Positions 13,101 through 38,410 of a stretch of 64,000 bases of DNA are shown here, piece by piece. Position 1 is the first letter of the stretch, and each line of letters begins with the position of its first letter. The notes under the pieces are model-generated. The model was not told the origin of the DNA, did no database searches, and saw only the letters and a list, made by a program, of their open reading frames with translations. This stretch comes from Yuukianura sp. NJ FZ-2021 (taxonomy: Eukaryota), in assembly GCA_046563655.1 (NCBI GenBank), contig CM102284.1:620001-684000 (forward strand), in the 5' to 3' direction. Both the position numbers and the translations under genes were made by a program.

Positions 13101-14423
13101 GTCGAAGATGTCAGCCATTCCGACAAGATTGAAATCCAATGCTGGTGGATTCAGAAAGTAGTACTGAACTCCACCTACCAGCGGAATCTCGTTGATCAAC
13201 GGTTTCATGATCAGTCGCAGTGTGCCACTCAACTAAGCAAGGAAAAAAACCAAAGTTTTTTTTGGAGAAAAACTTCCCAAAAAGTGGAAAATTCAGAAAA
13301 CTTTTTTCAAAATTACAGAAACCTAGCATTTTTTGTAGTCATACCTGAAGATCCTTGATTCCTGCCTTGATTTTGGCCAAAGAGAACCGAAAGTCACAGT
13401 CTCCAGCATAAATGACATCCAAGTCCATGATGATCTCATCTCTATCGGTCCGCTTTGAGTCATAAACTTTAACACCACGAACCTATTCAAAAAAAGTCTA
13501 CTTTTGAACAAAAGTTTTGTTGAAAGGCGGGAAACTCCGAAACTCCCTGGGTTTTGAATTTTTTGTTGTTACCCGGAGTGGCATGTCTCCGAGAATGATT
13601 TTCTCAAAACGAAATGAGCCCATCTTGTAGCTGGTAGACAATGTTTCACGAAGTGCCGGTTCGATTACGTTCACCACAAGGTCATACGTGTAGTTGTTGA
13701 TCCTTGGCCACAACTGTCTGAAATCATAAAGAAAGTACTTAACTCTAGCATATAAATTTGAAAATCGAAAGTATTACGTTTATCTTTGGTATTCCACTGA
13801 AACTGGATTAATGGACCATGGATTAGGGCATGAATGGAAAGGCTTGTAGTGGGACCATACAGTACTTGAATTGATTGAAATCAATTACGCAACTGGATTC
13901 AAGAGACTTACTCGATAATTTGATTCAGCCATTCAGCACGCTCAACATCAGGAAAAGTTACCCAACTGGGCAGATTCTCTCCGAGTCGTGCCAGCACAAT
14001 TTCACGTTCATCACCTCGAGCCGCCGCTTTGGCAATTTCACGCTGTGCATCGTGTGATCGTCTCCACTGCTCTCGCAGAACCATCAGGATGATCGGCCCC
14101 ACCAACCAGCCAGTGCTTAGCTAAAACAGATACAACAAGTTGTTATCAATCATCATAATCAATTACTTGGAAAATGTTTTGTCTCATACTTGGAAGTATC
14201 CAAGACCGTAGATGAACATCGTCAAAGCACATTTCTTGGCAAAAGCAATTGCCCAGTCAGTGATTCCTGGTGGCTCCACAAACTTGTACTTTTTCTTCAA
14301 GTCCTTCGGTCCAATCGGCTTGAATTTCGGTGTCGTCGTTGTCGCTACTGCTGAACTCGAAGTTCCAGCCACCGGCTGAACAGCTGATTCAGCACCATCC
14401 AGTTCTGGCTGTTTGTTGTCCAT
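10137..14423 (-). CDS. Esyt2: Extended synaptotagmin (TM hairpin, SMP domain, three C2 domains), multi-exon
   Basis: LPSWVTFPDVERAEWLN, SMP exons (GTLRLIMKPLINEIPLVGG), C2A GKSDPYVILSVG, C2B SPVFEETFHFLV, C2C PDPYVKMYVLP. TGA at 10139-10137. Confidence 0.95.
11357..11429 (-). repeat. tRNA-like (A-box/B-box) dispersed repeat copy, in an E-Syt intron
   Basis: Minus strand reads GGATAGCCCAATGGGTAGAGC...GCGTTCGAGTCCTACTCGG; similar to five other copies in the window. Confidence 0.65.
12902..12972 (-). repeat. tRNA-like dispersed repeat copy, in an E-Syt intron
   Basis: Minus strand reads GAGCCTGATAGCTCAATGGTTAGAGTG...GTGGGTTCGAATCCCATCCGGTCTCT. Confidence 0.7.
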
Positions 14424-15555
14424 CGTTTAATCGTTTCGCTGTCGTCGTCACCGAATCCAGCACGCTAAAATCATTTAAAATCTGACGATTACTCTTATCA
14501 TACCTCATTTTTAATCAAAACCTTGTTCGTACCCACCTTTGCTTTGTTTTTCGGATGAGTCAAATACTGGTGAATGGTGATTGTCTTGGATGAAGATCCG
14601 GTTTGTGATAAGAGTGACTTTGAAGCTCTGACGACCACTGACAGTGACAAGTCAAACGTTTCCAGAACTCCGTTATTAGTCGGCTTGTGTTTGTGGTCAG
14701 TCCTGTGGTTAACATTGACATAAACACAAAAGTCAAATTACCAAAATGAATCAATTTTCAAACAGAAATGGTAATGACGAGATGCTTACCTACTGTTATG
14801 AGTGTAACTTAAGAATAACAAGGTCAGAGGAGCAGTAGAGTGTAGAGACTGGATGACCTTCGGATGACCCTGTGTCGGCTCCAATAATAACGCATTGGAC
14901 AAATCGTGAATCCAGATATAAACACCAAAACCAACCACCCTATATGTGAATACAAGAAAATGAGTCAGAAAGGAAAAACTTTTGGCGAATGTATTGGCCT
15001 TCAACTCACAAAAAAATGTGTTTTACATGCAAAATTTTTTGCACGGAAGCAATACAAACAGCTTCATCTTCCAGAAATCGTCTGTACTTCTCACCAAATG
15101 CTAAAAGATGTCGTAAACAAAGCTATTTTAAGAGGTCACGTCACTTCCTTTCAAGAAAAAGGTTTTGGGTCATTTTTTATGCGAAACTTTCAACATTTAG
15201 AAATTGCAAAAACTGTAGGAATTGCCATCTTTTGAAAATTGTAAACACTGCCAGGAATGTAAGAATTGTCCACTTTTCAAAACTGTACATACGGTGTACA
15301 TACACCAAAATGTACTGCCAAAATTGTGAGAATTGGCAACTCCAAATTTTCAGAATTTCAAAATTTGAAAATTTTCACATCAGGTCGGCCACCATTATCT
15401 TGAGCAATTTTCCTTAAAAGAGTAGTACTATAAAAGACGCGGTTGGAGACGACGATAAAAACGTTTTTTTTTAAATCAAAATTTCTATAAAATTGTTTGT
15501 TGCTTTTTAGTTTTCACAATCATTCGGTCGTTTTTTTCTTTTTCTCATCAAAGCC

Positions 15556-17348: not shown

Positions 17349-19343
17349 ATGGCTAACCTAAAGTTTCTGATTTTGGTAATTTGCGTTTTTGTAAAAACGC
17401 AAGGAAGGCAACTGCCGCAAAGCGCAAAAGAATTTGCAGAAGGATTCATAGATTTTGAGAATGGCGACGGTAAGATTATTTCCCGCAAAAAAAAATAATA
17501 TTTTGTGCGCTTTTGCCAATTTTCTAAGCATTTTCTGAGGTAATTCGAGAAAAAATTAGTGTACAAAATTATAAAAAAAAATTTCAGGGAAACCTTACAA
17601 CTTTGAAAGAACCAATTGGAAACCTGCCATATTTCCGTTCAATATATTGTTCTCAGTAACTGCTGCCCCGCCGACTGAAACAGCTACCGATTCCCCTCCT
17701 ACAGAAACAACAACGGATACCCCTTCTACAGAAACAACAACGGATACCCCTTCTACAGAAACAACAACGGATACCCCTTCTACAGAAACAACAACGGATA
17801 CCCCTTCTACAGAAACAACAACGGATACCCCTTCTACAGAAACAACAACGGATACCCCTTCTACAGAAACAACAACGGATACCCCTTCTACAGAAACAAC
17901 AACGGATACCCCTTCTACAGAAACAACAACGGATACCCCTTCTACAGAAACAACAACGGATACCCCTTCTACAGAAACAACAACGGATGCCCCTTCTACA
18001 GAAACAACAACGGATACCCCTTCTACAGAAACAACAACGGATACCCCTTCTACAGAAACAACAACGGATACCCCTTCTACAGAAACAACAACGGATACCC
18101 CTTCTACAGAAACAACAACGGATACCCCTTCTACAGAAACAACAACGGATACCCCTTCTACAGAAACAACAACCGATACCCCTTCTACAGAAACAACAAC
18201 GGATACCCCTTCTACAGAAACAACAACGGATACCCCTTCTACAGAAACAACAACGGATACCCCTTCTACAGAAACAACAACGGATACCCCTTCTACAGAA
18301 ACAACAACGGATACCCCTTCTACAGAAACAACAACGGATACCCCTTCTACAGAAACAACAACGGATACCCCTTCTACAGAAACAACAACGGATACCCCTT
18401 CTACAGAAACAACAACGGATACCCCTTCTACAGAAACAACAACGGATACCCCTTCTACAGAAACAACAACGGATACCCCTTCTACAGAAACAACAACGGA
18501 TACCCCTTCTACAGAAACAACAACGGATACCCCTTCTACAGAAACAACAACGGATACCCCTTCTACAGAAACAACAACGGATACCCCTTCTACAGAAACA
18601 ACAACCGATACCCCTTCTACAGAAACAACAACGGATACCCCTTCTACAGAAACAACAACCGATACCCCTTCTACAGAAACAACAACCGATACCCCTTCTA
18701 CAGAAACAACAACCGATACCCCTTCTACAGAAACAACAACGGATACCCCTTCTACAGAAACAACAACGGATACCCCTTCTACAGAAACAACAACCGATAC
18801 CCCTTCTACAGAAACAACAACCGATACCCCTTCTACAGAAACAACAACGGATACCCCTTCTACAGAAACAACAACGGATATCCCTTCTACAGAAACAACA
18901 ACCGATACCCCTTCTACAGAAACAACAACAGATACCCCTTCTACAGAAACAACAACGGATACCCCTTCTACAGAAACAACAACCGATACCCCTTCTACAG
19001 AAACAACAACCGATACCCCTTCTACAGAAACAACAACCGGATACCCCTTCTACAGAAACAACAACCGATACCCCTTCTACAGAAACAACTACTGATGCAC
19101 CAACAACACTACCGACAACTCCAGCACCCACAAATCCTCCCACGGACCCACCAACGACGCCGCCTAACTCAGGTAAAAAAAAAACGGTTCCCTAACGCTA
19201 ATTTTTAACTCAAACTGCTCTAAATTGCATTGAATTCACCAATTGAATTGTTCTGAATTTTTTTTTCAACAGGAACAATTCCGTCAATTTGCCTCAATCT
19301 ACTATTCCTAGGCACTGTCTACCAACTTATGTTTAGCAGCTAA
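17349..19343 (+). CDS. Secreted/GPI-type mucin with TETTTDTPS repeats (3 exons; 1-bp frameshift near 19039)
   Basis: Signal exon 17349-17469 (MANLKFLILVICVFVKTQG). Exon 2 starts in frame at 17657. The last exon encodes a hydrophobic tail GTIPSICLNLLFLGTVYQLMFSS*. Confidence 0.75.
17674..19095 (+). repeat. 27-bp coding minisatellite, roughly 52 units (ACAGAAACAACAACSGATACCCCTTCT)
   Basis: Directly visible tandem array, with ACG/ACC variants at one codon. Confidence 0.97.
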
Positions 19344-19877: not shown

Positions 19878-21135
19878 ATGCATTCGTGTGGGAAAACAGT
19901 ATCACTGCTTGGCTTGCTACTCGTCGTTTTTATTGTAAGTTTAAAGTCACTCACAATTCACAAATAATTTGAGATCATTTTTTGAAATCGGTTTTTCCAT
20001 AATTATATTTTTCGAAACTTAGTAATTTAACTTTTAGATTCCGCGCTGCTCGGGACAGGACGATGATGATGCTGCGGCGGAAGATGAAGGAGACACAGAC
20101 GTACAAGAACCAGAAAAAACTTGTAAAAATTACATTGAAAATTTACTCCAAGGTTTCATAAAAGGCGCGCTAAATTGTCTTGGCGGGAAATTTCACATGA
20201 ACAACATCTTCGAACTTGGAACGAGATTTTACGTAAATCTAAAATTAAAAAAAATCTAAACTTATTTTATCCACTTTTTGAAAAAAATGTTCAATTTTTT
20301 TTGTTAATTTTTTTTCAGTGTATCTTCAAATGTATCCTTCAGGAAGTCGGTGTGGTAAGACCAATGAGCTTCAAATTACCAAACTTTTCAGAAGTTTGTA
20401 AAATTTCTTAACTTTTTTTTTTAAATTTTTAAAAAAGCTTGGGTCTAATGGACTTCTGGACGAAGTACAAGCTTTGTTTTACTTTCAAGAAGCCATTCCT
20501 GAAATTATTCTCGATGTGGTAATACAAGGCGCTCAGCCATGTCTGGCACTAGCATGTAATTCAAAATAATTCAATGTAATTCAAAATAATTCAAAGTATT
20601 TGAAATACCACAAATCAAAAAAAGTTTCCAACACAAGTTCAATTTAGCGAAAAAGCCACACAATTTCCTCGTTTTTCTGCAAACCGAAAATGTTTCCTAC
20701 CCGCTTTTTCAGTTTATCAGAAGAATTCATCAATTTAAAAATACAAGAATCTAAAATTCCAAAATTGAAAAACTTTTTCTTGTTACCATAGCAAATTTTG
20801 ACCCGAGCCAGTACTACTGCCAGAGTTACGGACCATTTGCCCAATGTGTCGTATCGAGCTTATCCGGCACCATAGCCCCTTATGCAATCAACTGCTACTC
20901 TACGCCTCTACTTGGCTTCTTCTTCTCCTTCATCAACACAATTGTACCGCCAGCATCTTCTCCGCCAGCATCAGCATCTTCGAATGCTGCAACTGCTAAG
21001 GAAATCAGAAAAAGATACTCAGCAGCCAAACTACGCTATCAACAACGACACAAAAATCAACACAAAAATTCATCTCTCGTCATTCCAAAAAGTAGTCAAA
21101 AATCAACTGCTTCTCCCAAAAATTCAACTACCTAA
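19878..21135 (+). CDS. Odorant-binding-protein-like secreted protein with C-terminal extension (5 exons)
   Basis: Signal MHSCGKTVSLLGLLLVVFI. The spliced product has OBP-type Cys spacing (C..C..CIFKCILQEVGVLGSNG..C..C-x8-C). In-frame GT-AG joins; TAA at 21133-21135. Confidence 0.6.
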
Positions 21136-21262
21136 CACTTTTAATTACAAAATTCAATTCAATTATAAATAGTAAGAATAAGTGGCACATTACACCTTAT
21201 CAGTTCAAAAATTTTGTCAAGGTTCAGTCAAAATATGAAATTTTTAAACATGAGACTAGAAT

Positions 21263-21919
21263 AATGTCGTAGCACATTTTTCTCAAAACGGAGCAAAAAC
21301 GGTAAGGTATTCTCCCACTATAAGGCCTCTCATTGCAACATAAAAATATTTCGTTTTTTTTTCAAAAATAGTCATAAGCTCTGAATTTCATCTTATCAGA
21401 CTAGTCTGTTAGACATAAGTTAGGTTACATAATCTAACGAGTCCTTACATAGTGTACCTATACACTTAATGTACTCTACTCTAACATAAAGCTAAGGTTA
21501 TGTCAGCTGACACAATCTAAGGTTTTGTAATCTTACATAACTGCAGTTGTGTAAGCATGACATGAAGTTAGGCAGTTGATATGAACGGTTTTAAAAATGC
21601 TTTCATGACCTGGTAGACACTAGATGATTCTTGAGCCAGGTTTTGTACAATGGTAAAGTGGTCATCAGAGGCACTTGAGTAGAAACTTGTTCGGTTGGCC
21701 AATGGAGTTTGAGTCCTTAGTTGTTGCAAGTAAGCGAACGACTGACGATGAAACTCTGGAGAATCGTGTTCTCCTATGAGAATAAGAGTCCGAAGGAATC
21801 CAAAGTCTATGACGTTGTTGAACGGAAGAAAAAGAGGACTTGACGCCACAGCTTCGTTTCTACAAAAATCAAAAACGAAATGACGACGATTCTTGGAAAG
21901 AACTTAAGATTTGGTTAAT
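21263..21919 (-). pseudogene. Duplicated last exon plus 3' flank of the kynurenine formamidase gene
   Basis: Near-identical to 29662-30319. ORF 21568-21849 translates identically to ORF 29970-30251. Confidence 0.9.
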
Positions 21920-22546
21920 GGACTAATGGACCATGGATTAGGGGAAGAATGGAAGTTTGTAGTGGGACGAGACAGTACTTGAGTTGATTGAAATCAATTA
22001 CACAATAGGATTCAAGAGACTTACTCGATAATTTGATTCAGCCATTCAGCACGCTCAACATCAGGAAAAGTTACCCAACTGGGCAGATTCTCTCCGAGTC
22101 GTGCCAGCACAATTTCACGTTCATCACCTCGAGCCGCCGCTTTGGCAATTTCACACTGTGCATCGTGTGATCGTCTCCACTGCTCTTGCAGAACCATCAG
22201 GATGATCGGCCCCACCAACCAGCCAGTGCTTAGCTAAAACAGAAACAACAAGTTGTTATCAATCATCATAATCAACTACTTGGAAAATGGTTTGTCTCAT
22301 ACTTGGAAGTATCCAAGACCGTAGATGAACATCGTCAACGCTACATTTCTTGGCAAAAGCACTTGCCCAATCAGTGATTCCAGGAGGCTCCACAAACTTG
22401 TACTTTTTCTTCAAGTCCTTCGGTCCAATCGGCTTGAACTTCGGTGTCGTAGTTGTCACGACTGCTGAAGTAGAAGATCCAGCCACCGGGTGAACAGCTG
22501 ATTCAGCACCATCCGGTGCTGGCTGTTTGTTGTCCATCGTTCAATC
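21920..22546 (-). pseudogene. Duplicated E-Syt coding exons 1-2, with a frameshift in exon 1
   Basis: Near-identical to ~13808-14432. AKKCALTMF becomes AKKCSVDDV through a 1-bp indel. Confidence 0.9.
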
Positions 22547-22554
22547 AAGTTTAC

Positions 22555-23092
22555 CTGGAATCCACAGCTGACACTACATCTGTTCTACCCATGAGAGGGA
22601 GGACAATTCTGAGGGAAGGCCAGATTGAGTTTGACATGAGACTGGACTCTTTTCCAGTCGACTGATGGTTGAGTACAGTCAGGAAATGCTGTGTGCAGCT
22701 TCTCTGAAAAACAAAGTCTTATTCATCAATCCATATTTTTTATAGAGGGTATTTGAGAATAAAGGTAAAAGTTACTTGCTTGCTCCCAGATGCACGAAAT
22801 CCCCAGGTTGTACCATGTTCGAATAAAACCCGGAGTCAGTTCCAGGGCACGGCGGTAGGCACTGATAGCCTCTGCTGATTACCCACCATTGGCCAGCGTA
22901 GCGCCCAACCGATTCCACAGCAGAGAATCCTAAAACAAAACATTGTACATTGGAATATGAATTTTGTCACTAGGATTAAAGGTTGTTTTTCCTTACATTT
23001 AGGCGAAGACTGAGAGCAGCTCCAAAACAATCAGCAGCCTTTTCGTAATCGGTTCCAAGGTTAAACAAAATCCCAAGGCCACACTGTCAATA
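22555..23092 (-). pseudogene. PEX5: PEX5 (PTS1 receptor) C-terminal TPR fragment, 3 exons with introns, disabled
   Basis: [30 protein letters not shown] | [46 protein letters not shown] | EAAQHFLTVLNHQ...MSNSIWPSLR follows the PEX5 TPR C-terminus. It has an in-frame stop and an apparent frameshift, and no N-terminal half. Confidence 0.85.
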
Positions 23093-23552
23093 CAATTGGG
23101 CACTACCTGAGGTGGCTGTTTTGGTGAAAAGTGCAGCGGTGGCAGCAACTCCTAATCCCCCCAATTCCGCAGCAATTCCTTCTCTGGTCAAAGCCGCCGA
23201 CAAATCCATCTTCTATCAATTCAATAATAAAAATTTTAGAAGTGTTATCACTTCTCCTTACAACGCCACTCCAATGTTACGAGTGATTTATTTTCAACTT
23301 GAGTTAAGTCATTGTCCAAATTACGTACGGAATCAAAAAATTATAAAAGTCGAATCAGTTTCTTTTCCTTGAAGGACGGAAAAAAATCCAATGAGTAATT
23401 AATTGTTAGCAAATGCAAGGTAAATGTAGTCATTCATGTAGGGTTCAGAGGTGAACAGAATATCAAAATGGCGGGGGAAAAGTCAAGACCAGTGTAGATC
23501 CCATCAGAATCGGAAAATGATTCTGTACAAACATTAATGCAGCATACTTGCT

Positions 23553-23638
23553 ATTAGTACGACTTATTAGTTACGACTTATTAGTTACGACTTATTAGTT
23601 ACGACTTATCAGTTACGGCTTATTAGTTACGACTTATT
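23553..23638. repeat. 14-bp tandem repeat (TATTAGTTACGACT), about 6 units
   Basis: Directly visible. Confidence 0.9.
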
Positions 23639-23653
23639 AAAAACGTCCCAATC

Positions 23654-24905
23654 TCATTTCTTTAGAAGTCTAGGGAGCAAATACTTTGGAGGAGCCTTGG
23701 TTTGTGGTGCCCGAGTGCTTGGTTGGCGCTGTATGCCACGGTTGACATTGTTTGTGGACGGAGACAATGGAGCTCGAGTAGTATTGCCCACGACAGACGC
23801 CAGATTATTTCCAGTTCGGCCCTAAACACAAAAATTCATCAACGTCAAAATCAGTTTTAACGTTTTCGTTTCTGAATTCCATTTTTTTTTTCAATTTTCG
23901 TAATTCTAGAAGTTAAAGTTGTTGAATTTCGAACATACCGTAACTGTTTCCTTTGTAAGATTGTTGAGCTGCGAGTTTGGAGCGGTGTCGTTGATTCTGA
24001 GAGAGGTTGGAGCTCGACTAGTATTGCCCACGACAGAAGCCACATTATTTGGAGTTCGGCCCTAAACACAAAAATTCATTAACGTCAAAATTAGTTTTAA
24101 CTTTTTCGTTTCTAAATTCCATTTTTTTTCAATTTTCGTAATTCTAGAAGTTAAAGTTGTTAAATTTCGAACATACCGTCAACGGCTGCTTGGTTACATT
24201 GTTCGGGTTAGACTTTGGAGGAGCGGTAGCGTTGAAACTTAAAGAAGTTGGAGCGACCCGGGATTGAATAACCATAGTGAACAGTTCTGGGTCTTCAATT
24301 GGATCTGACTGTGTCGACACCTCCTGATGGCTCGAGTGTGACGCCATTGCATTTTGCAGCTCCTTAGCTTCCATGGCTTCGATTCTAGTCTTCAGCGTTG
24401 TGTTTTCAACCTTCAATTCAGTAATCTCTTGAACCATGCTCTGCTGTACTGCTTCCAAGGTTTCCAATTCTTCCTTGAGTTGTTCCTCTCTGGCTCGACG
24501 TTTTTTTACTTCTTCAGTCGCCTTCTTCAATGCTTCTTCAAGTGCCCGAATGTCGGCCTGACCTGGAATGGACTGAATTTTCGTCTCAAGTAACTGGATT
24601 GTTCCCTCCAGGAGAGTATTTCCATGAAGGACCTTTGTTGCGTTCTGGGAATCACCACAAAGAGCCGCATGCACACACTTGTGCGCCTTCATTAACGAAG
24701 TAGAGCTCGACAGACGATGCAGGTGATCACACTTACTACAAATGGCAAAACCAGTCATTTGTTCATCCAAAAGTAGAAATTCGTAAACGATCCATCCAAG
24801 GGACGGGTTCAAGTGCGTTACGGGCTTCCTACTCAAACGATGACTGTTTTCAGCCACCAGTCGCAGCAGGTAGTCCTTTTCAAACGGAGACTTAGCGTAA
24901 GGCAT
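23654..24905 (-). CDS. BED zinc finger + coiled-coil protein with duplicated low-complexity exons (3 coding exons)
   Basis: W-x2-Y...GFAICSKCDHLHRLSSSTSLMKAHKC is a BED-finger pattern, followed by a heptad-rich helix. Phase-0 introns join exons 24905-24177, 24061-23939 and 23821-23654 (TGA). No DDE domain seen. Confidence 0.65.
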
Positions 24906-27065
24906 ATTATCAGTAATCCCCAGAGTTTTGTTGTACCTGCAGCATGAACAGAATGGGTTAAGAATATTAACTAATGTCCACCGGTACATCCCTACTTTAC
25001 ATCCACAGGGCAGCGGATACGAAAGTTCAATTGTGAGGGAGTGAAGGTTAATTGACTTACCGAATGCCGATTAATTGATTTCCACCGATCCCTGGATGAA
25101 ATTAATCAGAATGACAAAGACGTCCACTCACTCCCGTCGAGAGTCGACTGCAAGCACTCGATAACTCCACCTGTACAAGCAAAGACTCATTAGAACTTGA
25201 TTAATTGAAAATTGTAAAGGAAGTACACTGTTCCTTGAGTTAATTGATAATCTCAATTCATAGGATATGAGATCCATCCCACAAGAATTACTATGTGCAC
25301 AAGCTCTCCAAAGGGCATGAAGGCCACTTTGGAGAAATTATTGCATGCGGAAACTAAAGGTCACCTTGACCTTCCAGTGTAACCTACCGATTATTGATTT
25401 CCACCGACCCCTGGATAAAATTAAGCAGTTAATTGAGATTGAGAATGACAACAGATAGACGTCCGCTCTTGTCCACCCTCCGCACCGCAAACCGCAAAAC
25501 AGAAACTTTCAACTACGGAAGCGTAAAAGGGCCAAATCACTTCCCACTGCTCGGTACTCGATGCCCAGTGCGCGGTTCCCAGTACCCGGTGCGCGGTTCC
25601 CAGTACTCGGTGCGCGGTTCCCAGTACTCGGTACCCGCTTCCCAGTACCCGGTGCGCGGTTCCCAGTACTCGGTGCGCGGTTCCCAGTACTCGGTACCCG
25701 CTTCCCAGTACCCGGTGCGTGGTTCCCAGTACTCGGTACCCGCTTCCCAGTACCAGGTGCGCGGTTCCCAGTACCCAGTGCGCGGTTCCCAGTACTCGGT
25801 ACCCGCTTCCCAGTTCCCGGTGCGCAGTTCCCAGTTCCCAGTACCCGGTGCGCGGTTCCCAGTACTCGCTGCGCGGTTCCCAGTACCCGGTGCGCGGTTC
25901 CCAGTACTCGGTACCCGCTTCCCAGTACCCGGTGCGCGGTTCCCAGTTCCCAGTACTCAGTGCGCGGTTCCCAGTTCTCGCTTCCCACTTCCCAGTACTC
26001 AGTGCGCGGTTCCCAGTTCTCGGTTCCCAGTTGATCAGCTGATATTTTATTATTTGATCTTATCTCTGTATTGTTCAATTACTTTCAATTTTTCTTAGTT
26101 GTACTTCTCAAGAAATAAAGTTTTGTGTTCAACATGTTCTGAAAATTAATGGATCAGCTGATTGTTGGATTAAGTTTACCTCTAAATCTAAATTCTTCGT
26201 ATTTGTTCCTGAAAACTTAATTAACTAGGAAATTGTAAATAATTTATCCTCTTTAGTTTACTTCACATACCAAAAAGTTGTAATTTGTCGCAACTAAAAA
26301 GCGCTCGGCGTGTAACACACTTTTAGAAAAAAATAAAAACCACTTTTCAAACTTTTTTTTCGTACAAAATAAGTATTTATTTTCATTCATAACATTTTTT
26401 TAACTGATTTGAAATTTTATTAACAAAGGAGCATAACGACAAAAAACTTGAAAATCAAGCAATAAAAGATGGTTTTACATTTTTAATTAATTTCTTAGCT
26501 AACCTGGTGATGCAGCGATTGGAATATCCCGTGAATGATCCATCATCAAAGTATTCCAATTTCCAACGAATGGTACCGAACACAATACTACAAAATAAAT
26601 TAGTACAAAATTTTAATTGGAAATGTTAAACTTACCAAATATTTTCAGATTAGAGGATTAGACTTTCGATGCACGCTTTCAGGTTTTTATTTGTTTACTG
26701 TTTAGCAAACAGCTTTTACTCGTAAAGCTCCACGCGAAGCAGCTTGGAGATCTTCAAACTTCCGAAATATTGAACTTAAAATTCAAATTCTGAAAACACG
26801 AAAAAAGTTCATAATTTTGAAAAGTTAAATGTTGTTAATGTTGCACTTTATTTTGCATCGTAATTGGCAGAAGTTGAATTAAAGATCATTAGATATTAAA
26901 TGTTAAGATAAACTCTGCTCTATCCATCTATTAAGTTCATTATAGGTTGTCCCTTCTACAAAAAATTGAATAAAAAGTATTAATACCGGAAGATGTAATT
27001 TGATCCTAAAAATGTAATTTTAAAAATCAAACATCTAAAATCTTAAGTCTGCATAAAAACTAAAA

Positions 27066-27630
27066 CTAAGGAGCATCAGATCCAGATTGCGGTCGCGACC
27101 GTTGTCGCCTTCTGGCCAGTTCAGAGTGCACGACTGGTCCCAACGGCGGGGCTCGAGGACTTTGTGACAGAGCGGAGTACGTTGCTTGTATGGCACTCTG
27201 AAAAAATGCAAAAATAGTGATTAGATTTGTAAAATCTCCTGTTCAATTTTTATGAAAATTATTACTTTGAGCGCTAATGGTTGACAATCGATTGGAAGTG
27301 AATGGGACGGGAGGGTGTATCTGTTTTGAATCCAAGCATGATTCACTACTTGGACAGCATTCGGACGGCGATTTGGATCTACTGCCAACATTTCTGGAAA
27401 AAAAAACACAAAAATGATTTCTCGATTCATATTCACGAAAAAAAGTAAATATTTTGTATCTGAACTCCTTAGCCAGAGTTACACTTAAAAATTCTTACGT
27501 TTGACGAGGTCCTTGGCCGGAGCGGAAATGAATGACCAATTTCCAGTGTTCATGTCCAAGGCGCCAGTTCCGATTCTTGACAAGATAGTGGCCGGAGTAT
27601 CACTTCCACCAGTTGCAAATGGCGTCTTCC
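27066..27630 (-). pseudogene. Last three exons (with introns) of a p90 ribosomal S6 kinase (RSK/S6kII) gene
   Basis: KTPFATGGSDTPATILSRIGTG...WSFISAPAKDLVK | MLAVDPNRRPNAVQVVNHAWI | SAIQATYSALSQSPRAPPLGPVVHSELARRR...* is the end of the RSK C-terminal kinase domain plus the ERK-docking tail. No upstream kinase exons are present. Confidence 0.85.
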
Positions 27631-27905
27631 TATATTTAGTTAGTTCAATATTAGTACTGCACAACATTATATTGCACAACATTTACTAATGATTTTGAGT
27701 TACTCTTTTTGCGTATGACCATTTTTTGAATTTTTTTTTAAATTGCTACCTGCAATAGGAGTCCCGGTTTGAATGACTGTTGCAATTGATTGTCCAGGCT
27801 CCAAGTTGGCAGTCGTAGAGGCCAAGGAAGGCTGCGGGGAATCTAAAATACATAACATTTATTAGCATAAACGCCACCACCTGGAGCAAAGTTAACTTTA
27901 AAAAG

Positions 27906-28283
27906 TTGGTTGGATACTACCAAACGGGGCCCAGATGAAAAATTTTCTAAGTCCAGAAAATTTGACCTGGCGTCCCCTGACAACCTCAAAAATGACCCCT
28001 ACAAAAGTTGTTGAGGTCAATGAGACGATCATTTTGACATATGACACACGACTGTGTGACCACTGGTTTGCCCTATAGGTCAAAAGGTTATGTTTTTACA
28101 AAACCTAACTTTTGACCTCAACAGCTGGTCACATAGCCATAAGTGATATGTCAAAATGATCGTCTCATTGACCTCGACAACTTTTGTAGGGGTCATTTTT
28201 GAGGTTGTCAGGAGACCCCGGGTCAAATTTTCTGGACTTAGAAAATTTTCATCTCTGCGCACCGTTTGCTAGTATCCAACCAA
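27906..28283. mobile_element. Palindromic MITE nested in the larger element
   Basis: ~170-bp inverted arms (ttggttggatacta...tagtatccaaccaa) around a short centre at ~28085-28110. Confidence 0.75.
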
Positions 28284-29969
28284 AAAGTTAGTTTAACTTA
28301 AAAAGTTAACTAAAACTTAACTTTAAAGTTGATTAATACACTTGTTATTGGGAATCTTGTTGGTTTCAAATGATAGTCTATGATATTAAGTCAAAGTGCG
28401 AATGACAAGCTCTCAACATATCAATAGTCTTAACAGTGTGTTTACCAACAAAGATTGATAAAATCAATTAAGCTAATCGCAATTATTGATATGATTTGCT
28501 AAAGTTTATAAACAAAGCCATGATTTAAATTTAATTATAAATACAAGCTGTTACGTATCACTTTGTTAAAGTGCTGATCAGAGATTATTGATTTTAAAAT
28601 ATCAGCTGATCAACTGGGAAGCGAGAACTGGGAACCGCGCACTGAGTACTGGGAACCGGGAACCGCGCACTGAGTACTGGGAAGTGGGAAGCGAGGACCA
28701 GGCACTGAGTAGTGAGAAGTGGGAAGTGAGGACCGCGCACTGGGAACTGGGAACCGCGCACTGAGTACTGGGAAGTGGGAAGCGTGAGAGGGCCAGGTAC
28801 TGAGTAGTGGGAACTGAGAACCGCGCACCGAGTACTGGGAACCGGGAATCGAGTACTGGGATCGCTCACCGGGTACTGGGAACCGCGCACCGAGTACTGG
28901 GAACCGCGCACCGAGTACTGTGAACCGCGCACCGGGTACTGGAAACCGGGAACCGAGTACTGGGAATCGCGCACCGGGTACTGGAAACCGGGAACCGAGT
29001 ACTGGGAACCGCGTACCGAGTACTGGGAACCGCGCACCGGGTACTGGGAACCAGGAATCGAGTACTGGGAGCCGCGCACCGAGTACTGGGAACCGCGCAC
29101 CGAGTACTAGGAACCGTGCACCGAGTACTGGGAACCGCGCAGTTCAACTCCAATGTATTGCTTATGGAGGAGGTAATCGGGAAGCGAGTTGGCACTTTTA
29201 CGCTTCCGTATTCAACAAATCCTCGCCAGAGGAGACACCTTCTAGTAGAAGGTTCTACGAGGTTGCAATAAATGAATCTACACCATTTGTACACACAAAG
29301 TGTAACCACCGCACCCTTTCTTATAACGATCGAATGGTTACTATCAATTGGTTGAGCTAAGTTCCTTAAAATTTAATAACTCAAAAAGTGTAGACGGGGC
29401 TCTAATGTATTTACGTTACCGTAACTATTGGATTCGGGTTTTGGACAAAAGCGATAGTGATGGTTACCCTATAGCAGCGGTAGTCTACTTCCGCCAAATA
29501 CACGCAAAATACACTAACCAAACACAGTAACAACAACAACTACTTGCTCCAGAAGCAAATCAGTAACACTTACTTAATAATTAAGTTCTGCTTCAATTGG
29601 ATGACGTAAAATATTAAAATCTCTCAAAATAACTATAAAAAATTGATAAGTTAGTTGATTGAATGTCGTAGCACATTTTTCTCAAAACGGAGCAAAAACT
29701 TCGGTAAAGTATTCTCCCACTATAAGGCCTCTCATTGCAACACAAAAATATTTCGTTTTTTTTTTTCAAAAATAGTCATAAGCTCTGAATTTCATTTTAT
29801 CACACTGGTCTGTTAGACATAAGTTAGGTTACATAATCTAACGAGTCCTTACATAGTGTACCTATACACTTAATGTACTCTACTCTAACATAAAGCTAAG
29901 GTTATGTCAGCTGACACAATCTAAGGTTTTGTAATCTTACATAACTGCAGTTGTGTAAGCATGAGTAAG

Positions 29970-31212
29970 TTAGGCAGTTGATATGAACGGTTTTAAAAAT
30001 GCTTTCATGACCTGGTAGACACTAGATGATTCTTGAGCCAGGTTTTGTACAATGGTAAAGTGGTCATCAGAGGCACTTGAGTAGAAACTTGTTCGGTTGG
30101 CCAATGGAGTTTGAGTCCTTAGTTGTTGCAAGTAAGCGAACGACTGACGATGAAACTCTGGAGAATCGTGTTCTCCTATGAGAATAAGAGTCCGAAGGAA
30201 TCCAAAGTCTATGACGTTGTTGAACGGAAGAAAAAGAGGACTTGACGCCACAGCTTCGTTTCTACAAAAATCAAAAGCGAAGTTACGACGATTGTTGGAA
30301 TGAACTTAGATTTGGTTAACTTACTGGCTGAAATTGAGCGAATCATTGACATAAGTAAGTAAAAGTGGACGAAGATCAAAAACTCCTGAAATGAGCACAA
30401 GTCCGACAATAGATCGTCCGATAATAGGATCCAGATTTGGCGAATGGAGAAGGCTAGAAGCCAATTGAGCTCCGGCTGAGTGTCCTCCGATGATTAGTTT
30501 CCGTCCAGGATCTGCGTGTCCTTTGAACAACACTTGGATAGCATCCACTAAACCTGTTTCCATTTCTGATACTTTTGCTGAAAATGACAGTATTCAAAGA
30601 TTTAGTCGACATCCTTGTGTAGACGAATACTTTGAAGTTTTCGTAAATCAGAAAGGAGTTTCCTACCTTCCGGAGCCAAAGTGTAGCCAAAAACAAGTGT
30701 TTTGATCCCAATCTTGTAATTCAGCATTGAAATTCCACCGGAAATGTCCTTGCTTCCTTCTGAACAAAAAAATATTCGAGTTAGGTTAGAGATGGATTGC
30801 ACTTTTGCACTCATGCATGTTTGAACTGTGGAGGAGGAGGTGGATTGATTGATTAGATTGTCCTGTACCTTGCCAATATCCACCATGTATGAACACAAAA
30901 ACAGGAGCGCGGATACCCAGATTCGTTCCATACAAATCAAAAACCTGAGCTGGTTGGGTGCCATATGGAATGTCCAATTGGTGTGGCACTGCGGCACGAG
31001 CTGCTGCTGTATCTGAAATACAGAAACGATTTTTTTTTGCAAATTTTCAAAAATCAATGATTAAAGAAGAATACTGATTGAAAGTTACAATCTGCCGAAG
31101 TTGTCAAGTACTCTTGGATAACTTCGTCCGGTGTTTTGGTTGGGTTCCATTGACTAGGAGAGACTTCCTTCGCCAGTTCAGTTCTGGATAACTGCATCCA
31201 TTCCGGATTCAT
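29970..31212 (-). CDS. KFase: Kynurenine formamidase / arylformamidase-like alpha/beta hydrolase (multi-exon)
   Basis: SPSQW N-terminal motif, DIPYG...FDLY, VFIHGGYWQ oxyanion motif, GHSAG nucleophile elbow, ISGVFDLRPL, GEHDSPEFHRQS, DHFTIV. An extra upstream exon cannot be excluded. Confidence 0.9.
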
Positions 31213-32105
31213 GGCTACAAACATAAATAATCAATTAGAACGAAAGAAGACTCAATTACTTCATTCAAGGTCGAACCTTTAAGTTTAAGCGTAATCCGAT
31301 GATTTGCAAGGCAACCGCCGAATCTAAACAACTGAATTAACTAAAAGTAACCAAAAAAGTTAAATTCAACTTAACATAGTTCTTCTTCAGCTCAACTTCC
31401 ATAATCCACGATTCCTGGATTATTTTTGTTGTGGGGTGTCACTAATCCACAGACTAGCGCAAAAGAAATTCCCGCTGAGCGTTGTAATGATAGGGACAAG
31501 ATGCGATTTAGATAAATTTCTGAATGTAAATAAAAGCATTTAAATCGGTTTCTTCTTGCTTCTCTTAAATTAAAAGTTCTAAATTAACAGTTAACTAATC
31601 TTAGTTGGGAATCTATTAAATTGCATTGAATTTACATAAATGGAAAAATACAGGGTAGACATGCACCTTGCCAGATAAACTGTAAAAATTGAACCCTGTG
31701 TTCCAAACCCAAACGAAACCTCTACTTTGCTTTTAGTGTTTTTTATGTTTATATTTCTTGATTCCCGTGTAAGTGTAGTGAGCATTTTAGTTGAAATAAG
31801 TTCTGAAGGCATATTTGCCAACCAATTTTATTCTTATCAAACAATAGCAATAGGCATTATAACGTTCAAGTTTTCAAATGTTCCTAAACAGAAACCGTGG
31901 TATTTGACTTTTAGAACTCGCAAAATAGCAAGTAAAATTCGGACAAACATTTCAAAATTCTATTTTTGTAACAATCCAGCTCAAATTGCAGAAAGCTCCT
32001 CAACCAAATAAACTTCGAAACCGTTTTATGTTCTGAACTTGGCATATTCGGCCAGTAGAACTTTTGGTTTCAAATTCATCAGTCAGCTACATAAAACATT
32101 TCATC

Positions 32106-33681
32106 ATGTTAACCATCTCAGTAATTAAAGTCAAGAAACATCATGAATTGAAACTCAAACTTCTAGCCAAGAAGAACAGGAACGCCAACTTTTGGTTGAA
32201 GATAATGTATTCCTGGGCAAAATTTGTACACTGCGTTCCCGTTGAGTACAAATATGCACAAAATGTGGCAGCAATCATTGCAGTTAGCAACAACACCACG
32301 GCCAATACGGTATTTGGAATATGCGCAATATTTGTTGTAGCATGTTTTAATCTATATTTGTACTACGAAATGTGTATTGGAGTTACGACAAGAATAGAAG
32401 CATTGTTTATCATTGGCACCAACAGCATTTTTGGTATACTAAATTTTACGCAGGCTTTGATGTTGGTTCCGCAACTGCGTCGACGCATAATAAATATAAC
32501 GAACGTCTCAGTCAAAACTTGGTATCGTATTTCAAATCGTACTCCACGCTCTTTTGAAGTTTTCTGTTGTGTTATGTGCTTTACTTCCATTACTTATCCG
32601 CTTTTGTATCTTCCTGGTCTGTACTTTTCGTCTCTTCAATTTCCCGGAGCTTTCAAATCACTTGAGAACGGACTAAAATTTGTAGCTAACAAAAGTGAGC
32701 ACATCGCTCCAATTGCACCAATGCTACTCTTTATAGCGCTTAAACTGTGTATATTATCAGTGGTTTCATTGGGATTATTCCGTTCTCTTGTTAATTCTGT
32801 AATATTCACTCACTGGGGAATCACATACTTCTTTACCACAACGCAATGCCTTCAAGTACTACAAGCCAGAAGGTAAGTAACACACGAGGTTTTATCTAAT
32901 ATACATAGAGTAATAAGATGTGCACTGTATGCACCATAACTATCGGGTGTACCATAAGTCCGTTGTATCTTTTTTCTTTCTGTGTAACTTCTCCATTTAA
33001 ATCTTTCATCTCTAGCCGTGGAGTTTTTGGAGCTAATGAATTTTTTACAGAGAAAGTTATAACGGACTTATGGTACACCCGATATTTTCAATAGTTCCGG
33101 TGTACGATACTTACTTAAGACATAATAAGCGCAATATGCAACATATTAAAAGTATACATACTATATATATTTTTCAAATCGTTCTTTACAGCAATACATA
33201 TTTGCCTACGGACGCACATTCTTACTCAAAGGTTGGTTTGAGGAGCACTGCTGTGGAGTATTTGAAGATTCGATTGATCTCTCAGGAATACAGCCAAGTC
33301 ATGTCTTTCCTTTTAGCCTTCTTTTTAGCCAATGGTTTAGTTACGGTTGTTGTACTGAGTTTTCTTGTGCTTCGCGATATTCAGCATCCAACTATACTGA
33401 TTGTTCCATTTTCTGTAGCAGATTTATTCCTCATTGTTACAGCCAACCTTTTCATAACTCTTTCAACGGATATTTACATCACTTCAAAGCAACTCATTCA
33501 AAAATTTACTCTGTGCAGAAGAGGTTTGAGCAAATTGGATTCAAAGTTTTGGCGGGGAATGGCCCCTCTGCGCATCAACGTTGGGAATACTTTCTCTTTT
33601 GAAACGAGAGAATTCATGTTGTTCATTTGGGGTCAAGTTGTCATTACTATCATTAACTTACTAATTGCATTTAAAAGGTAA
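32106..33681 (+). CDS. Gustatory-receptor-like multi-pass chemoreceptor, copy 1 (2 exons)
   Basis: Multiple TM helices and C-terminal FWRGMAPLRINVG...WGQVVITIINLLI. Paralogous to the next two genes. Confidence 0.7.
32941..33084. mobile_element. Tc1/mariner-type MITE in the intron of GR-like copy 1
   Basis: Perfect 24-bp inverted ends TATCGGGTGTACCATAAGTCCGTT / AACGGACTTATGGTACACCCGATA with terminal TA. Confidence 0.8.
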
Positions 33682-34018
33682 TATATATTGATATATTCTG
33701 TTCTGAATAAAATGCATACACAAGAATTTTTTTTTGTTTTTAAATTTTGGCCACGCAAGCATGTACTTTGCCTTTATGAAGAATTGTAGATGTAACTTCC
33801 TACGGGCTCTTTATTCACGTTTCTGTGTAACATATTATTATTTTCAATCGTTTCGCAAATTATAGCAGGTAGAAAATTTCCAGCCTTATAATTTACCAAG
33901 TTGAAAATTTCCAACCTTGTAATTCACTGTGTTGGAAATTTCCGACTTTGTAATTTGCTTATGTGACGTTCAGGTCTCTGGCTTGATAGCGGAGTGAAAG
34001 TTAGTGTGGAAAATACTG

Positions 34019-34087
34019 GAGCCAAGGGGGATTCGAACCCACGTCTCTTCAATCCATGAAAAGCTCTAACCCTTGAGCTATCGGGTC
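34019..34087 (-). repeat. tRNA-like dispersed repeat copy (intergenic)
   Basis: Minus strand reads GACCCGATAGCTCAAGGGTTAGAGCTTTTCATGGATTGAAGAGACGTGGGTTCGAATCCCCCTTGGCTC. Confidence 0.7.
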
Positions 34088-34493
34088 TTTCCTACACTAT
34101 CCCAGGATGAACCAATTTAGAAGACTGGCTATCCCAGCGGCTTTGAAAATAAAAAAAATTTTTAAACCGAGTCCTCGAGAAAGCCCTTCTGACGCCATAT
34201 TTCTAAAATATTCTTGATCTTATCAAACTACATTGGAGACTATGAAGGTCAAGTCTTGGTAAGTGGTTTTACATGTTCGTAAACAGGGACCGCTGTGTTT
34301 TGCTTACAAAACAGAAAGTAAAAATTGATTATATTCGGCCAAACATGCAGAACTTTCATTTCTGAGTCACTCCAGGATCATATCGCTGAAACCCTTTCAA
34401 TCCAGTATTAAAAATTCCAAACTTTTCAGTATGTTTTCCAATTTAAACAGTCGCGCATTTAAACGATTGCCTTCAAAGTCTAAACATTTCATC

Positions 34494-36376
34494 ATGTTAT
34501 CATTCTTAGAAATTGAAGCCAGCACAGCTCGGTCCAAACTGAAATTCAAACTAAGAAAAAATATACGTTCCTTTCGTTTATATCAGGTAACATATTTGGA
34601 TATTAACAAACTTCTACATGCTAACACGGCGATATACAACATAAATACTACATTAACACTAACTTATTAACTTAATAATTTTATTACTTAATTTATTATT
34701 AACATTAAATTGTAATTATGTAGTTAACTACAGCTATGAACAACGCCAACTGTTGGTTGAAGATCATGCACTCATGGGCAAAATTTGTACACTGTGTTCC
34801 AGTTGAGTACAAATATGGACAAAATATGGCAGGGACACTTACATTCAGCAAGGACACTATGGGCAATATGGTATTTGGAGTATGCTCAATATTTGTTGTA
34901 GGATGCTTCACTCTCTACTGGTACTATGAAGTATGTTTCGGAGTTACCACAAAAATAGAAGGGCTCTTTATCATTGGCATCAACTGCATCTTAAACACGC
35001 TTAACCTAATGCAGACTTTGATTTGGCTTCCGGCACTGCGTCGACGCATACTCAATATTACCAATATCTCAATCAAAACTTGGTTTCGTATGTCCAATCG
35101 CCTCCCGCGCTCTTATGAAATCTTGTCTTTCCTCTTCTGCTATAATTCAATTACTTACCCGTTTTTGTTGCTCCCGTCTCTCTACTTTGTATCTCTTCTA
35201 TTTCCGGGTGTTTTCACTATGCTTGAACATGGAATGAAATTTGTGGCCTACAAAACTGCCCAAATCGCGCCAAATGTGGCTGATCCTTCAATGTTACTTT
35301 TTGCATCGCTCAAACTGTGTATTTTGTCTGTAATTTCAATCGGTGTGGGCCGTTCCCTTGTTAACGGTTTAATATTTACTCATTGGATACTCACCTACTT
35401 CTTTACAACAAGACAATGCCTGAAGGTGCTAAAAGCCAGAAGGTACGTATAACAAGTCTTTATGTCATATACCATTCACTACATGCACAACCCATATTAT
35501 ATTATATTTTATATATATACATATTATATGCATATTATATACATATTAAATATAAACACGCTTCTTATACAAGAGTAGAAAAAAGTAGTTTAAAACCATC
35601 CCCCTGCGTTCAGCCCCTTAGCAACCAATCAATCTAGTTTTGGTTTGTGACGTCACTCGGTGAAAAATACGGGAATTCGGGGAGTAAGGATGGTATCCTT
35701 ATAGCAACCCATATACCGCTTTTTGTTTAGATAAGCGCCTGGCAATTTAATCTGACGATTACGGTATTTTTCAACGAGTGACGTCATAAAAAATGACGTG
35801 GTAACCTAACAAATTTCTCTTCGCACTACCTAGTATTATTCTATTTACCTTGGTTTAAAACTATAATATTTTGAAATATTTCTTTACAGTGATACATTTT
35901 TGCATACCGATGCAAATTTTTACTTGAGGTCATTTCTCCGCAGTACTCAAGTGGAATATGTGAAAATTCGATTGATTTCCCAAGAATACAGTCAACTTAT
36001 GGCTCTCATTTTAGCTATCTTTTTTGTCAATGGTTTCGTCGCAGTTGTTGTCTTGAGTTTTCTTGTGATTCGGGATATTCCACAGCCTACTCTACTCATT
36101 GTCCCATTTTCTGTGGCAGATACAGCTATCATTATTGCAGCAAACTTTGTCATAACTCTCTCAACTGATATTTACATCAACTCAAAACAACTCATTCAAA
36201 AACTTGCTCTCCGCAGAAGGGTTGTGAACAAATTGGATGCAAAGTTTTGGCGGGGAATGGCCCCTCTGCGCATCAAAGTTGGGAATATTTCTGCTTTTGA
36301 AACTAGAGAATTCACACTGTTCATTTGGGGTCAAGTTGTCATTGTTGCTATCATTAACTTACTCATTACATTTTAG
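34494..36376 (+). CDS. Gustatory-receptor-like chemoreceptor, copy 2 (3 exons)
   Basis: ORFs 34736-35452 and 35900-36376 are paralogous to copy 1, with an extra short first exon. Confidence 0.7.
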
Positions 36377-36849
36377 ATGTAGTGCTTTATCTACAACTCT
36401 ATCTACCCCATTTTGAATCTCAAACGTAGGAATTTACGAAATTTAAAATTCACAACCTTGTAAATGTCGGAAAAGTTTTTGACATGGAAATTTTTTTGGA
36501 AATAAAACCGAGTCGCTGATACACCCTAAAGTTTGAATACCATGTTTGAAAAATATTCTTGATTTTATCAAACTGCATTAAGGATTTTGAATATCAAGTT
36601 TTCGTAAGTGGTTTGCAATTTTCCTAAACACGAGGCCGAGGCGTGGCGCTTTGCTTTTAAAACTCTCAAAAACAACAAGTAAAAATGATTAAATTCTATT
36701 AAACATGTAAAACCTTTATTTCCGGATTATTCGAGATCATATCACAAAAGAACTTCTCAATCTAATATTAAATTCAAAGCCTTTTGATGCTTTGAAATTT
36801 GAATACCCGACCAGTTGAACTTTTGCCGTCAAATTCTAAACACTTCATC

Positions 36850-38410
36850 ATGCTATACAACATGAAACTTAAAGCAAGAACACTTCGGGCAAAACTGAAA
36901 CTAAGCAATAAGGTATACTCATTCCGTGTATGCCAGGTAACATATTTGGATATTAACAAACTACATCTTAACTTACAAATATATCATATATATTCTATGT
37001 ATATAGTTATAGTAAGGTATAAATATACTTATCATATGATGATCATACCATGATTTATATAGTTAATTTCAGCAACGAGGAACCGCAGCGCCAACTATTG
37101 GTTGAATATCGTGTATACATGGGCAAAATTTTTGCACTGTGCTCCAGTTGAGTACAAATATGGACAAAATATGGCAGGAACACTTATAGTCAGCAACGAT
37201 AGCACAGCAAATATGGTATTTGGAATATGCTCAATATTTGTTGTAGGATGCTCTGCACTCTACTTGTACTACGAAGTATGTTTTGGAGTTACGACAAGAA
37301 TAGAAGCATTGCTTATCATTGGCGGCAACTGCATTTTCAACATGATGAATTTGACGCAGATTTGTATTTTGGTTCCGGCACTGCGTCGACGCGTACTCAA
37401 TATTACCAACGTCTCAATCAAAACGTGGTTTCGTATTTCGAATCGTATCCCGCGCTCCTTTGAATTTTTTTGTTTTATTTTGTGCTATACTTCGGTAAGT
37501 TATCCACTGTTGTATCTCCCTGGTATCTACTTTGTATCTTTTCAATTTCCCGGACTCTTCACATCACTTGAAAACGGACTGAAATATTTGGCTTACTTAA
37601 CTGCACAAAATGTGCCAAATATGCCTTATGCAACAGTGCTATTCTTTTCTACGCTCAAACTATGTACTTTCTCAGTAATTGCTATTGGTTTAGCCCGATC
37701 TGTTATTAATGCTATAATATTTACTCACTGGATAATCACCTACTTCTTCACCACAACGCAATGCCTTGAGGCGCTTAAAACCAGAAGGTATGTGACTCAA
37801 GCGTTTTGTCATAATTTTTTAATATATATATATATATAAATATCATATATGTATATTATATTTACTTATAAGAGATCAGATACGGCTAGCTGAAAGCTAT
37901 ATTTTTCAAATTTTCCTTTACAGCGATACGTTTTTCTGCAACGGTGCATATTTTTACTCGAAGTTGGGTTCCTACAGCACCGCAATGGAATATGTGAAGA
38001 TACGAGTAATTTCCCAGGAATACAGCCAGCTTATGGCTCTCATTTTAGCCATCTTTTTTGCCAATGGCTTATTCGGAATTGTCGTCTTGAGTTTTATTAT
38101 ACTTCGCGATATTCAACATCCTACAATGCTGATTGTCCCATTTGCTCTGGCAGATTCAGGTCTCATTATTGCTGCAAACTTTGCCATAACTTTCGCAACT
38201 GACATTTACATCAACTCAAATCAGCTGATTCAAAAGTTTACTATGCGCAGAAGAGTTAGGAGCAAATTGGATTCAAAGTTTTGGCGGGGAATGGCCCCTC
38301 TGCGCATCAAAGTTGGGAATATTTCTGCTTTTGAAGCGAGAGAATTCACGTTGTACATTTGGGGTCAAGTTGTCATTGTTGCTATCATTAACTTACTCAT
38401 TACATTTTAG
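36850..38410 (+). CDS. Gustatory-receptor-like chemoreceptor, copy 3 (3 exons)
   Basis: ORFs 37102-37839 and 37964-38410; same exon structure as copy 2. Confidence 0.7.

Follow-up and report, generated by a model that had tools for sequence, protein, structure and literature searches.

How do three exons of an RSK gene come to lie inside a palindromic, transposon-like unit? The question is raised by a 64-kb stretch of the invertebrate genome of Yuukianura sp. NJ FZ-2021 (contig CM102284.1, positions 620,001 to 684,000; hereafter the window, with coordinates counted from its first letter), in which a 3,697-bp unit bounded by terminal inverted repeats (TIRs) and a target-site duplication (TSD) occupies 25514-29210. 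A first-pass annotation, made from the letters alone, had read this unit as a non-autonomous, gene-capturing foldback transposon. We consider it likely that the unit is a non-autonomous foldback-type cut-and-paste transposon with IS3EU/GingerRoot-like ends, that it inserted recently at a TTCAAC site, and that it carries captured RSK DNA.

The structure of the element was read at 25400-29320. Its outermost 16-mer, TACGGAAGCGTAAAAG, occurs exactly at 25514-25529 on the plus strand and at 29195-29210 on the minus strand, its sole two matches in the window at up to three mismatches. Since 12 of 100 shuffled sequences reached at least two matches at this tolerance, the count itself is not significant, and the weight lies in the exactness of the two copies, their inversion and their placement at both ends. 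Aligned over 32 nt, the ends are identical at 29 positions, including all of the first 16, so that the element starts with TACGG and finishes with CCGTA; a perfect 6-bp TSD, TTCAAC, stands immediately outside both ends (25508-25513 and 29211-29216). A 21-nt unit, GTGCGCGGTTCCCAGTACTCG, gave 28 matches at up to three mismatches, 14 on the plus strand in 25568-26022 and 14 on the minus strand in 28622-29142, with none expected by chance (100 shuffles), and Tandem Repeats Finder (TRF) described the arrays in the arms with period 21, plus 42 and 63. The longest inverted pair between the arms is 280 nt long with 88% complementarity, and the inverted repeat extends past the arrays, via a common inner motif, to about 26052 and 28588. 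The arms, 539 bp (GC 0.63) and 623 bp (GC 0.59), enclose an AT-rich middle of 2,535 bp (GC 0.34), and are thus of the kind that marks the foldback class, long and inverted and built of tandem sub-repeats. The palindrome GATCAGCTGAT(C), a candidate protein-binding site, was found three times in the window (26033, 26152 and 28601), each time within the element and twice at the inner borders of the arms.

Evidence that this unit has moved came from public sequencing runs. Five runs cover parts of 21001-31000, and four of them (X1-X4), all in the form of Logan contigs, were compared over 20001-32000; X1-X3 represent one sample of organism A, and X4 represents organism B from another study. The threshold for a contig joint was at least 31 letters on each side. 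A joint from 25507 directly to 29211 was observed in X1-X4, skipping 3,703 bases with six letters that fit either side, which corresponds to the 3,697-bp element and one TTCAAC. The contig that holds this empty site is 450 nt long in X1 (334 + 119 nt, no other letters) and 1,156 nt in X2 (678 + 481 nt, one other letter), and has 82 nt on its shorter side at a depth of 2.7 in X4; the joint in X3 has 30 nt on its shorter side, one below the threshold. Because a 6-bp repeat cannot mislead a 31-mer assembly, two samples, each from its own study, must contain DNA molecules in which the site is unoccupied. The clean site with a single TTCAAC indicates a never-occupied state rather than an excision scar, and its precision indicates that the whole unit is a polymorphic insertion, and hence one that was recently mobile. 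That the element is a genuine, recently inserted and still polymorphic transposon copy is well supported.

Within the middle of the element, the minus strand carries three RSK exons (27629-27499, 27393-27266 and 27197-27066), which encode the end of the C-terminal kinase domain and the C-terminal tail. Their translations matched RSK1/RSK3 chains of the PDB with E values of 7e-10, 0.02 and 1.4e-4, and tblastn with a 760-aa full-length RSK gave an E value of 2e-19. The AG acceptors, GT donors and phases are intact, and the three exons, separated by introns of 105 and 68 bp, splice to one open frame of 129 codons with a stop at its end. The cargo retains the RSK C-terminal tail, including a LARRR-type stretch, which we take to correspond to the ERK-docking site of mammalian RSK. 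With eight RSK proteins or fragments as tblastn queries, all RSK matches in the 64 kb fell within 27114-27682, and no other RSK-like sequence was found in the window at E < 1. As the exons stand without everything upstream, they constitute a gene piece and not a gene.

The stretch at the place of the preceding exon, 27750-27842, was tried as a fourth RSK exon and rejected: BLASTP against full RSK gave E values of 3 and 11 in two frames, tblastn gave no match, and the stretch is without the kinase DxWSxG motif. At best it may be a decayed exon remnant. A HMMER search with the RSK exon against 1.84 billion representatives returned 160 matches at E ≤ 0.001, the closest among the best 150 of the 160 being 79% and 66% identical. 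Three of these relatives are proteins of 110-256 aa encoded on Logan or JGI/IMG contigs of 1.4-9.6 kb (the 79% relative on a metagenome contig). Two of the three, and one further sequence, were rejected as parents of the cargo because they are without the intron between the two middle exons. A word-based search among longer proteins with the best exon yielded 25 candidates, none with E ≤ 0.001.

No coding capacity for transposition was detected in the element. None of its interior stop-to-stop frames exceeds 85 aa, and none of three interior or three flanking frames had a Pfam family above cut-off; no transposase was found among the 10 large open reading frames of the window that were checked against Pfam. 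Metagenome scans with the end motif and with the 21-bp unit gave 0 matches each, and Rfam and tRNA scans of 21000-31000 found nothing. The element thus has TIR and TSD bounds without a transposase, and within them a host gene fragment acquired at the DNA level with its introns, which are two of the features of Pack-type elements. These results agree in most respects with the first-pass annotation. Alignment returned its 32-bp TIRs (first 16 identical, three mismatches), its TACGG start and its perfect TTCAAC duplication, and its inverted minisatellite arms of ~500 bp were recovered by TRF and motif count. The last three exons and introns of RSK that it had placed in a transposase-free interior of ~2.5 kb are upheld by the PDB, HMMER and tblastn matches, the splice sites and the lack of any interior frame above 85 aa. 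Its view of the cargo as captured genomic DNA, and not a retrocopy, is consistent with intron-containing exons outside any local RSK gene and an empty allele without the fragment; the empty TTCAAC site that it had suggested looking for is the joint described above, and this site, together with several variants of end-proximal sequence, bears out a non-autonomous foldback transposon bounded by TIRs and a TSD.

We propose the following course of events. A transposase encoded elsewhere would recognise the 32-bp TIRs, with the 21-bp subterminal repeats probably serving as extra transposase-binding sites by analogy with Galileo, and would make a 6-bp staggered cut in the target, as is evident from the TSD and the empty site. 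The stretch 26435-27846 (segment A) would derive from an RSK-like sequence that was copied as DNA, together with its introns, into the interior of a family member. It was probably joined by end-joining or template-switch repair and not by its own transposition, because microhomology at its borders is limited to 2-3 nt and TIR, TSD and Helitron-type ends are absent; repair of this kind is the mechanism usually proposed for Pack elements. On the coding strand, segment A starts 4 nt upstream of an acceptor site. A Helitron was considered as its carrier and rejected: Helitrons have 5'-TC ... CTRR-3' ends and insert between A and T, and neither AACGAC...AATCTAA nor TTAGATTCC...GTCGTT fits such ends. 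A hAT-like miniature inverted-repeat transposable element (MITE) with an 8-bp TSD would have inserted beside segment A.

In complete IS3EU families the termini are always TA..TA and the TSD is usually 6 bp (Kojima and Bao 2023, PMC10045372), so the signature that the first-pass annotation had given stands in print; GingerRoot (6-bp TSD, mostly TA..TA) falls into one lineage with IS3EU at 99% bootstrap (PMC10045372), and IS3EU is present in animals, including a beetle (PMC11934779). The present element has the 6-bp TSD of IS3EU and GingerRoot (PMC10045372, PMC6839031) and 5'-TA...TA-3' termini, in the form TACGG...CCGTA. As no transposase was seen, we infer the assignment from these features: the ends and TSD appear to fit IS3EU/GingerRoot best, and membership is plausible, with the balance near even. 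The annotation had also known of no description of gene capture for IS3EU. As a claim of novelty this fails for the lineage, because gene fragments, introns included, are present in 22 of the 77 intact GingerRoot elements from the clubmoss Selaginella lepidophylla (Cerbin et al. 2019, PMC6839031); under the name IS3EU, neither gene carriage nor foldback structure was met in the portions of the IS3EU literature surveyed.

Alternatively, though we hold this to be the less probable case, the element may be a foldback form that arose within another superfamily (Mutator/FB-like, P/Galileo-like, hAT or undescribed), with the resemblance of its ends to IS3EU a coincidence. Just two short features, TSD length and terminal dinucleotides, link it to IS3EU. 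The TSD is 9 bp in FB and 7 bp in Galileo (P superfamily), compared with 6 bp, by the empty-site joint, in the present element. A length of 8-10 bp is given for Tetris (PMC4079207) and holds for Mutator-like foldback elements, so that the element departs from the foldback class in this respect. Foldback elements are mostly assigned to Mutator, with Galileo in the P superfamily, and the architecture is thought to arise independently across lineages (PMC4079207). Among integrase-related groups with a 6-bp TSD, Polinton ends in AG..TC and Ginger2 in TG..CA (PMC6839031), as against TA..TA here.

The history of the cargo was examined in the same run contigs. A single contig, recovered in X1 and X2 (one sample), makes two jumps in succession, 26434 to 27847 and 27899 to 28282. 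The first jump drops 26435-27846 with two shared letters; the second skips 382 bases with eight shared letters, exactly the MITE and one AAAAAGTT. A copy of the element interior without segment A and without the MITE therefore probably exists, in which case the RSK DNA would be an acquisition within the element family. The MITE itself (27908-28281) had a summed contig depth ~20-fold that of the adjacent bins in each of the four runs, and probably belongs to a high-copy hAT-like family, the superfamily being guessed from TSD length alone. Contigs ~95-97% like segment A were present in both organisms (e.g. 675 nt in X1, with 19 other letters and 13 gaps), and no contig agrees with the window at the six listed places in 26578-26728. 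Head-to-tail joints between the two ends of segment A were also found, as 27843->26434 in X2, X3 and X4 and as 27845->26441 in X1 (two contigs), X2 and X3, with 8-10 letters between. Read as variants of 26434-26441 of the window, these letters make the two joints the same junction. An A-like unit is thus tandem or circular somewhere, with a period of exactly the inserted length; this would fit a unit-length circle that arose from a tandem duplicate, insertion as a concatemer, or tandem duplication within a further copy of the element.

These data also bear on whether the element arrived empty and received the RSK segment and the MITE later, by insertion at this locus, in which case it would not be an exon-mobilising Pack element. 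This we regard as unlikely. The borders of segment A, with microhomology and no transposon features, would suit such a history, as would the interior version that seems to exist without segment A and the single locus known for this cargo. Two observations point the other way. The empty-site flanks in X1 and X2 match the window with none and one other letter, yet segment A differs from every contig at the six places just mentioned. Segment A therefore looks older than the insertion, although this is weak evidence because other haplotype blocks lie ~3% apart in the species. Moreover, organism B has the left interior (26001-26400) and the A-like unit at about single-contig depth despite the empty site here.

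The ends and arms of the element are repeated in both organisms. At 25537, a short way inside the left end, the contig depths, which do not equal copy number, summed to 1823, 336, 1670 and 922 in X1-X4, and single flank contigs had depths of ~174-337, 22-53, 48-263 and 4-12, respectively. Part of this depth (617 of 1823 in X1) is carried by a variant with a 7-nt insertion near the left end, and several joints lead from arm to arm, such as 25538->29131 (depth 1101 in X4); X4 also has loose ends of hairpin type, ~60-70 nt away from the tip, that resemble miniature foldback derivatives. These variants show that distinct copies of ends and arms are present in both organisms. In X4, the two ends of the element abut, right end before left, with 6 nt (GAAAAC) between them (25511-25514 / 29210), at a depth of 227 against ~5 for single contigs, or ~40-fold. 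A spacer of TSD length is a feature of IS3-type circle junctions or (IS)2 dimers. The plainer reading of the abutted ends would be a tandem array of (mini-)elements produced by unequal crossing-over, as with Tetris; foldback sub-repeats have been proposed as extra transposase-binding sites, and foldback elements tend to spawn tandem arrays (PMC4079207). An active animal branch of IS3EU/GingerRoot with foldback architecture, taking up host DNA as unit-length circular or tandem pieces, appears improbable; it is left open because the RSK-segment ends are joined head to tail at the exact borders in both organisms and the element ends abut in organism B. If the abutted ends and head-to-tail joints were transposition intermediates or their integrated products, they would point to copy-out-paste-in transposition in a eukaryote.

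Several points count against the reading of the locus as a Pack-type foldback transposon with captured RSK DNA. The filled junction is in no listed contig piece of X1-X4, and the filled allele rests on the assembly of the window. The contig without segment A comes from one sample, with the stretch between its two sides unread and a shorter side of 22 nt in X1 and 53 nt in X2. The RSK-like contigs differ from the window by ~3-5% and have their ends head to tail, which simple capture from an intact gene does not predict, and the parental RSK gene was found neither in the window nor in the run contigs compared. No autonomous element, transposase or second TIR-bounded copy with flanks was found among the window and the run contigs, and the depths at the ends do not give copy numbers.

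The missing filled junction would also suit a palindrome made by long-read foldback or by the assembly, and foldback artefacts are known in long-read data (PMC12870357). Such an origin is very improbable: the arms are ~88% complementary and of unequal length, the ends carry a proper TIR and TSD, and independent runs of two organisms contain these TIR-proximal and arm sequences too. Another idea, that an actual RSK gene ends in these exons and that the element is a misassembly or two unrelated insertions, draws some appearance from the three intact exons splicing in frame; the annotation had named a misassembled RSK gene as one outcome that would undo its reading. This idea is close to refuted, because there is no other RSK exon in 64 kb despite introns of ~70-100 bp, contigs of two studies are without the whole 3.7 kb precisely, keeping one TTCAAC, and the expected upstream exon is degenerate. 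The features of the transposon are listed in Table 1.

Table 1 Features of the element at 25514-29210 and its flanking duplication, in window coordinates.
Feature	Coordinates	Strand	Basis
Left TSD, TTCAAC	25508..25513	.	Sequence; joint 25507->29211 has 6 letters fitting either side
Left TIR, starts TACGG	25514..25545	+	Exact 16-mer; 29/32 identical to right end
Left foldback arm: TIR, ~23 units of 21-bp repeat (array 25543-26028) and inner motif TTGATCAGCTGATATTTTA	25514..26052	+	GC 0.625
Left unique interior (L), AT-rich, GC 0.26, non-coding	26053..26434	.	Contig passes from here directly to 27847
Segment A, 1,412 bp, probable acquired host DNA: RSK 3' exons, introns and ~630 bp downstream of the stop	26435..27846	-	Joints 26434->27847, 27843->26434, 27845->26441
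Last RSK exon, SAIQATYSAL...ELARRRQRSRP..., including stop codon	27066..27197	-	RSK1 C-terminal tail peptides, E 1.4e-4
RSK exon, QMLAVDPNRRPNAVQVVNHAWIQNR...LALK, end of C-terminal kinase domain	27266..27393	-	In frame with neighbours
RSK exon, KTPFATGGSDTPATILSRIGTGALDMNTGNWSFISAPAKDLVK	27499..27629	-	RSK1 chains, E 7e-10; best relative 79% identical; AG acceptor, GT donor
Possible degenerate fourth RSK exon	27750..27842	-	AG/GT borders, collinear YD....W; similarity not significant
Nested palindromic MITE, 374 bp, ends GGTTGGATACTA.CAAACGG; 8-bp TSD AAAAAGTT at 27900-27907 and 28282-28289	27908..28281	.	Alignment of the two halves; joint 27899->28282
Right unique interior (R), AT-rich, GC 0.27	28290..28587	.	
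Right foldback arm: inner motif, 21-bp array 28612-29141 and TIR 29179-29210 ending CCGTA	28588..29210	-	
Right TSD, TTCAAC	29211..29216	.	Sequence and empty-site joint

The surroundings of the element contain further rearranged and repeated DNA. Between two genes lies a 1.28-kb chimera (21263-22546), of which 21263-21918 copies the 3' exon region of a formamidase-like gene (29662-30319) at 97.1%, and 21919-22546, directly adjoining, copies the 5' exons of a C2-domain (E-Syt-like) gene (13804-14432) at 94.6%. The two copies follow each other as they would across a tandem-duplication or circle junction, yet no sequence is common to the 6.8 and 7.1 kb that flank the chimera. False duplication of a haplotype, a true rearrangement or a further capture could account for it; the transposon is located in the second half. 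Contig cover of 21201-22000 and of 29601-30400 differs between runs. A 308-aa open frame on the minus strand (24147-25070) lies 440 bp from the insertion site, and the transposon is in its upstream region; by eye it has a BED-finger-like C..C...H...H pattern without a Pfam match, together with a long coiled coil, and its only Pfam matches are of the coiled-coil type and below cut-offs. Two tandem copies of a ~245-bp unit with 85.6% identity occupy 23768-24254. A perfect-looking 1.6-kb tandem array at 17575-19205 is open in six frames, one of which reads as a mucin-like (TETTTDTPS)n. Three tandem paralogues of a two-part gene, with 75-85% DNA identity, lie at 32158-38410; the one frame checked had no Pfam family, and they may form a lineage-specific membrane-protein cluster.

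Several consequences would follow from the proposed origin. Ongoing transposition in the species has a natural marker in this element. If transcribed, a copy of the cargo could in principle give rise to a decoy peptide or to small RNAs that silence RSK. To date, foldback architecture has been linked to the Mutator and P superfamilies, and an IS3EU/GingerRoot-like element would add a third lineage, as well as an animal example of exon carriage in the IS3EU/GingerRoot lineage.

Among known systems, GingerRoot shares with the element the 6-bp TSD, the TA...TA termini, the TIRs and the acquired host fragments with exons and introns, and its acquisitions are often accompanied by transposase loss (PMC6839031). 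It differs in being a plant system of 3.9-12.9 kb with simple TIRs of 100-150 bp (PMC6839031), whereas the present element is 3.7 kb long, from an animal, and has arms of ~540-620 bp made of 21-bp repeats. Repbase IS3EU families likewise have TA..TA termini and a TSD of usually 6 bp (PMC10045372); their membership is defined by an IS3/IS481-like DDD/E transposase.

In architecture, the closest counterparts are FB, Galileo (P superfamily) and Tetris of D. virilis, which also have long inverted arms of tandem sub-repeats, a short non-coding middle and non-autonomous copies (PMC4079207). They differ in TSD length, as noted above, and in terminal sequence, and no exon-intron host fragment is described for them in the portions of the literature surveyed. 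The element works like a foldback element, yet is not a member of the FB, Galileo or Tetris families.

In its cargo, the element resembles Pack-MULEs, other plant Pack-TYPE elements and Turmoil-1 of C. elegans, all of which are non-autonomous TIR elements with host gene fragments acquired at the DNA level. Pack-MULEs and Pack-TYPE elements belong to other superfamilies (MULE, CACTA and others) and occur mostly in plants; the element described here is known from one cargo-bearing copy. TIR transposons that have captured gene fragments are amply documented in plants, with few cases in the animal literature surveyed; the 2008 abstract on Turmoil-1 called transduplication unknown in animals (PMC2572040). 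Measured against these systems, the newness of the element is modest and lies in the combination of an animal host, a foldback shape, recent mobility, an IS3EU/GingerRoot end signature and spliceable exons. It is a tidy example of a known phenomenon and involves no new principle; its value is that of a clean case with the empty site in hand.

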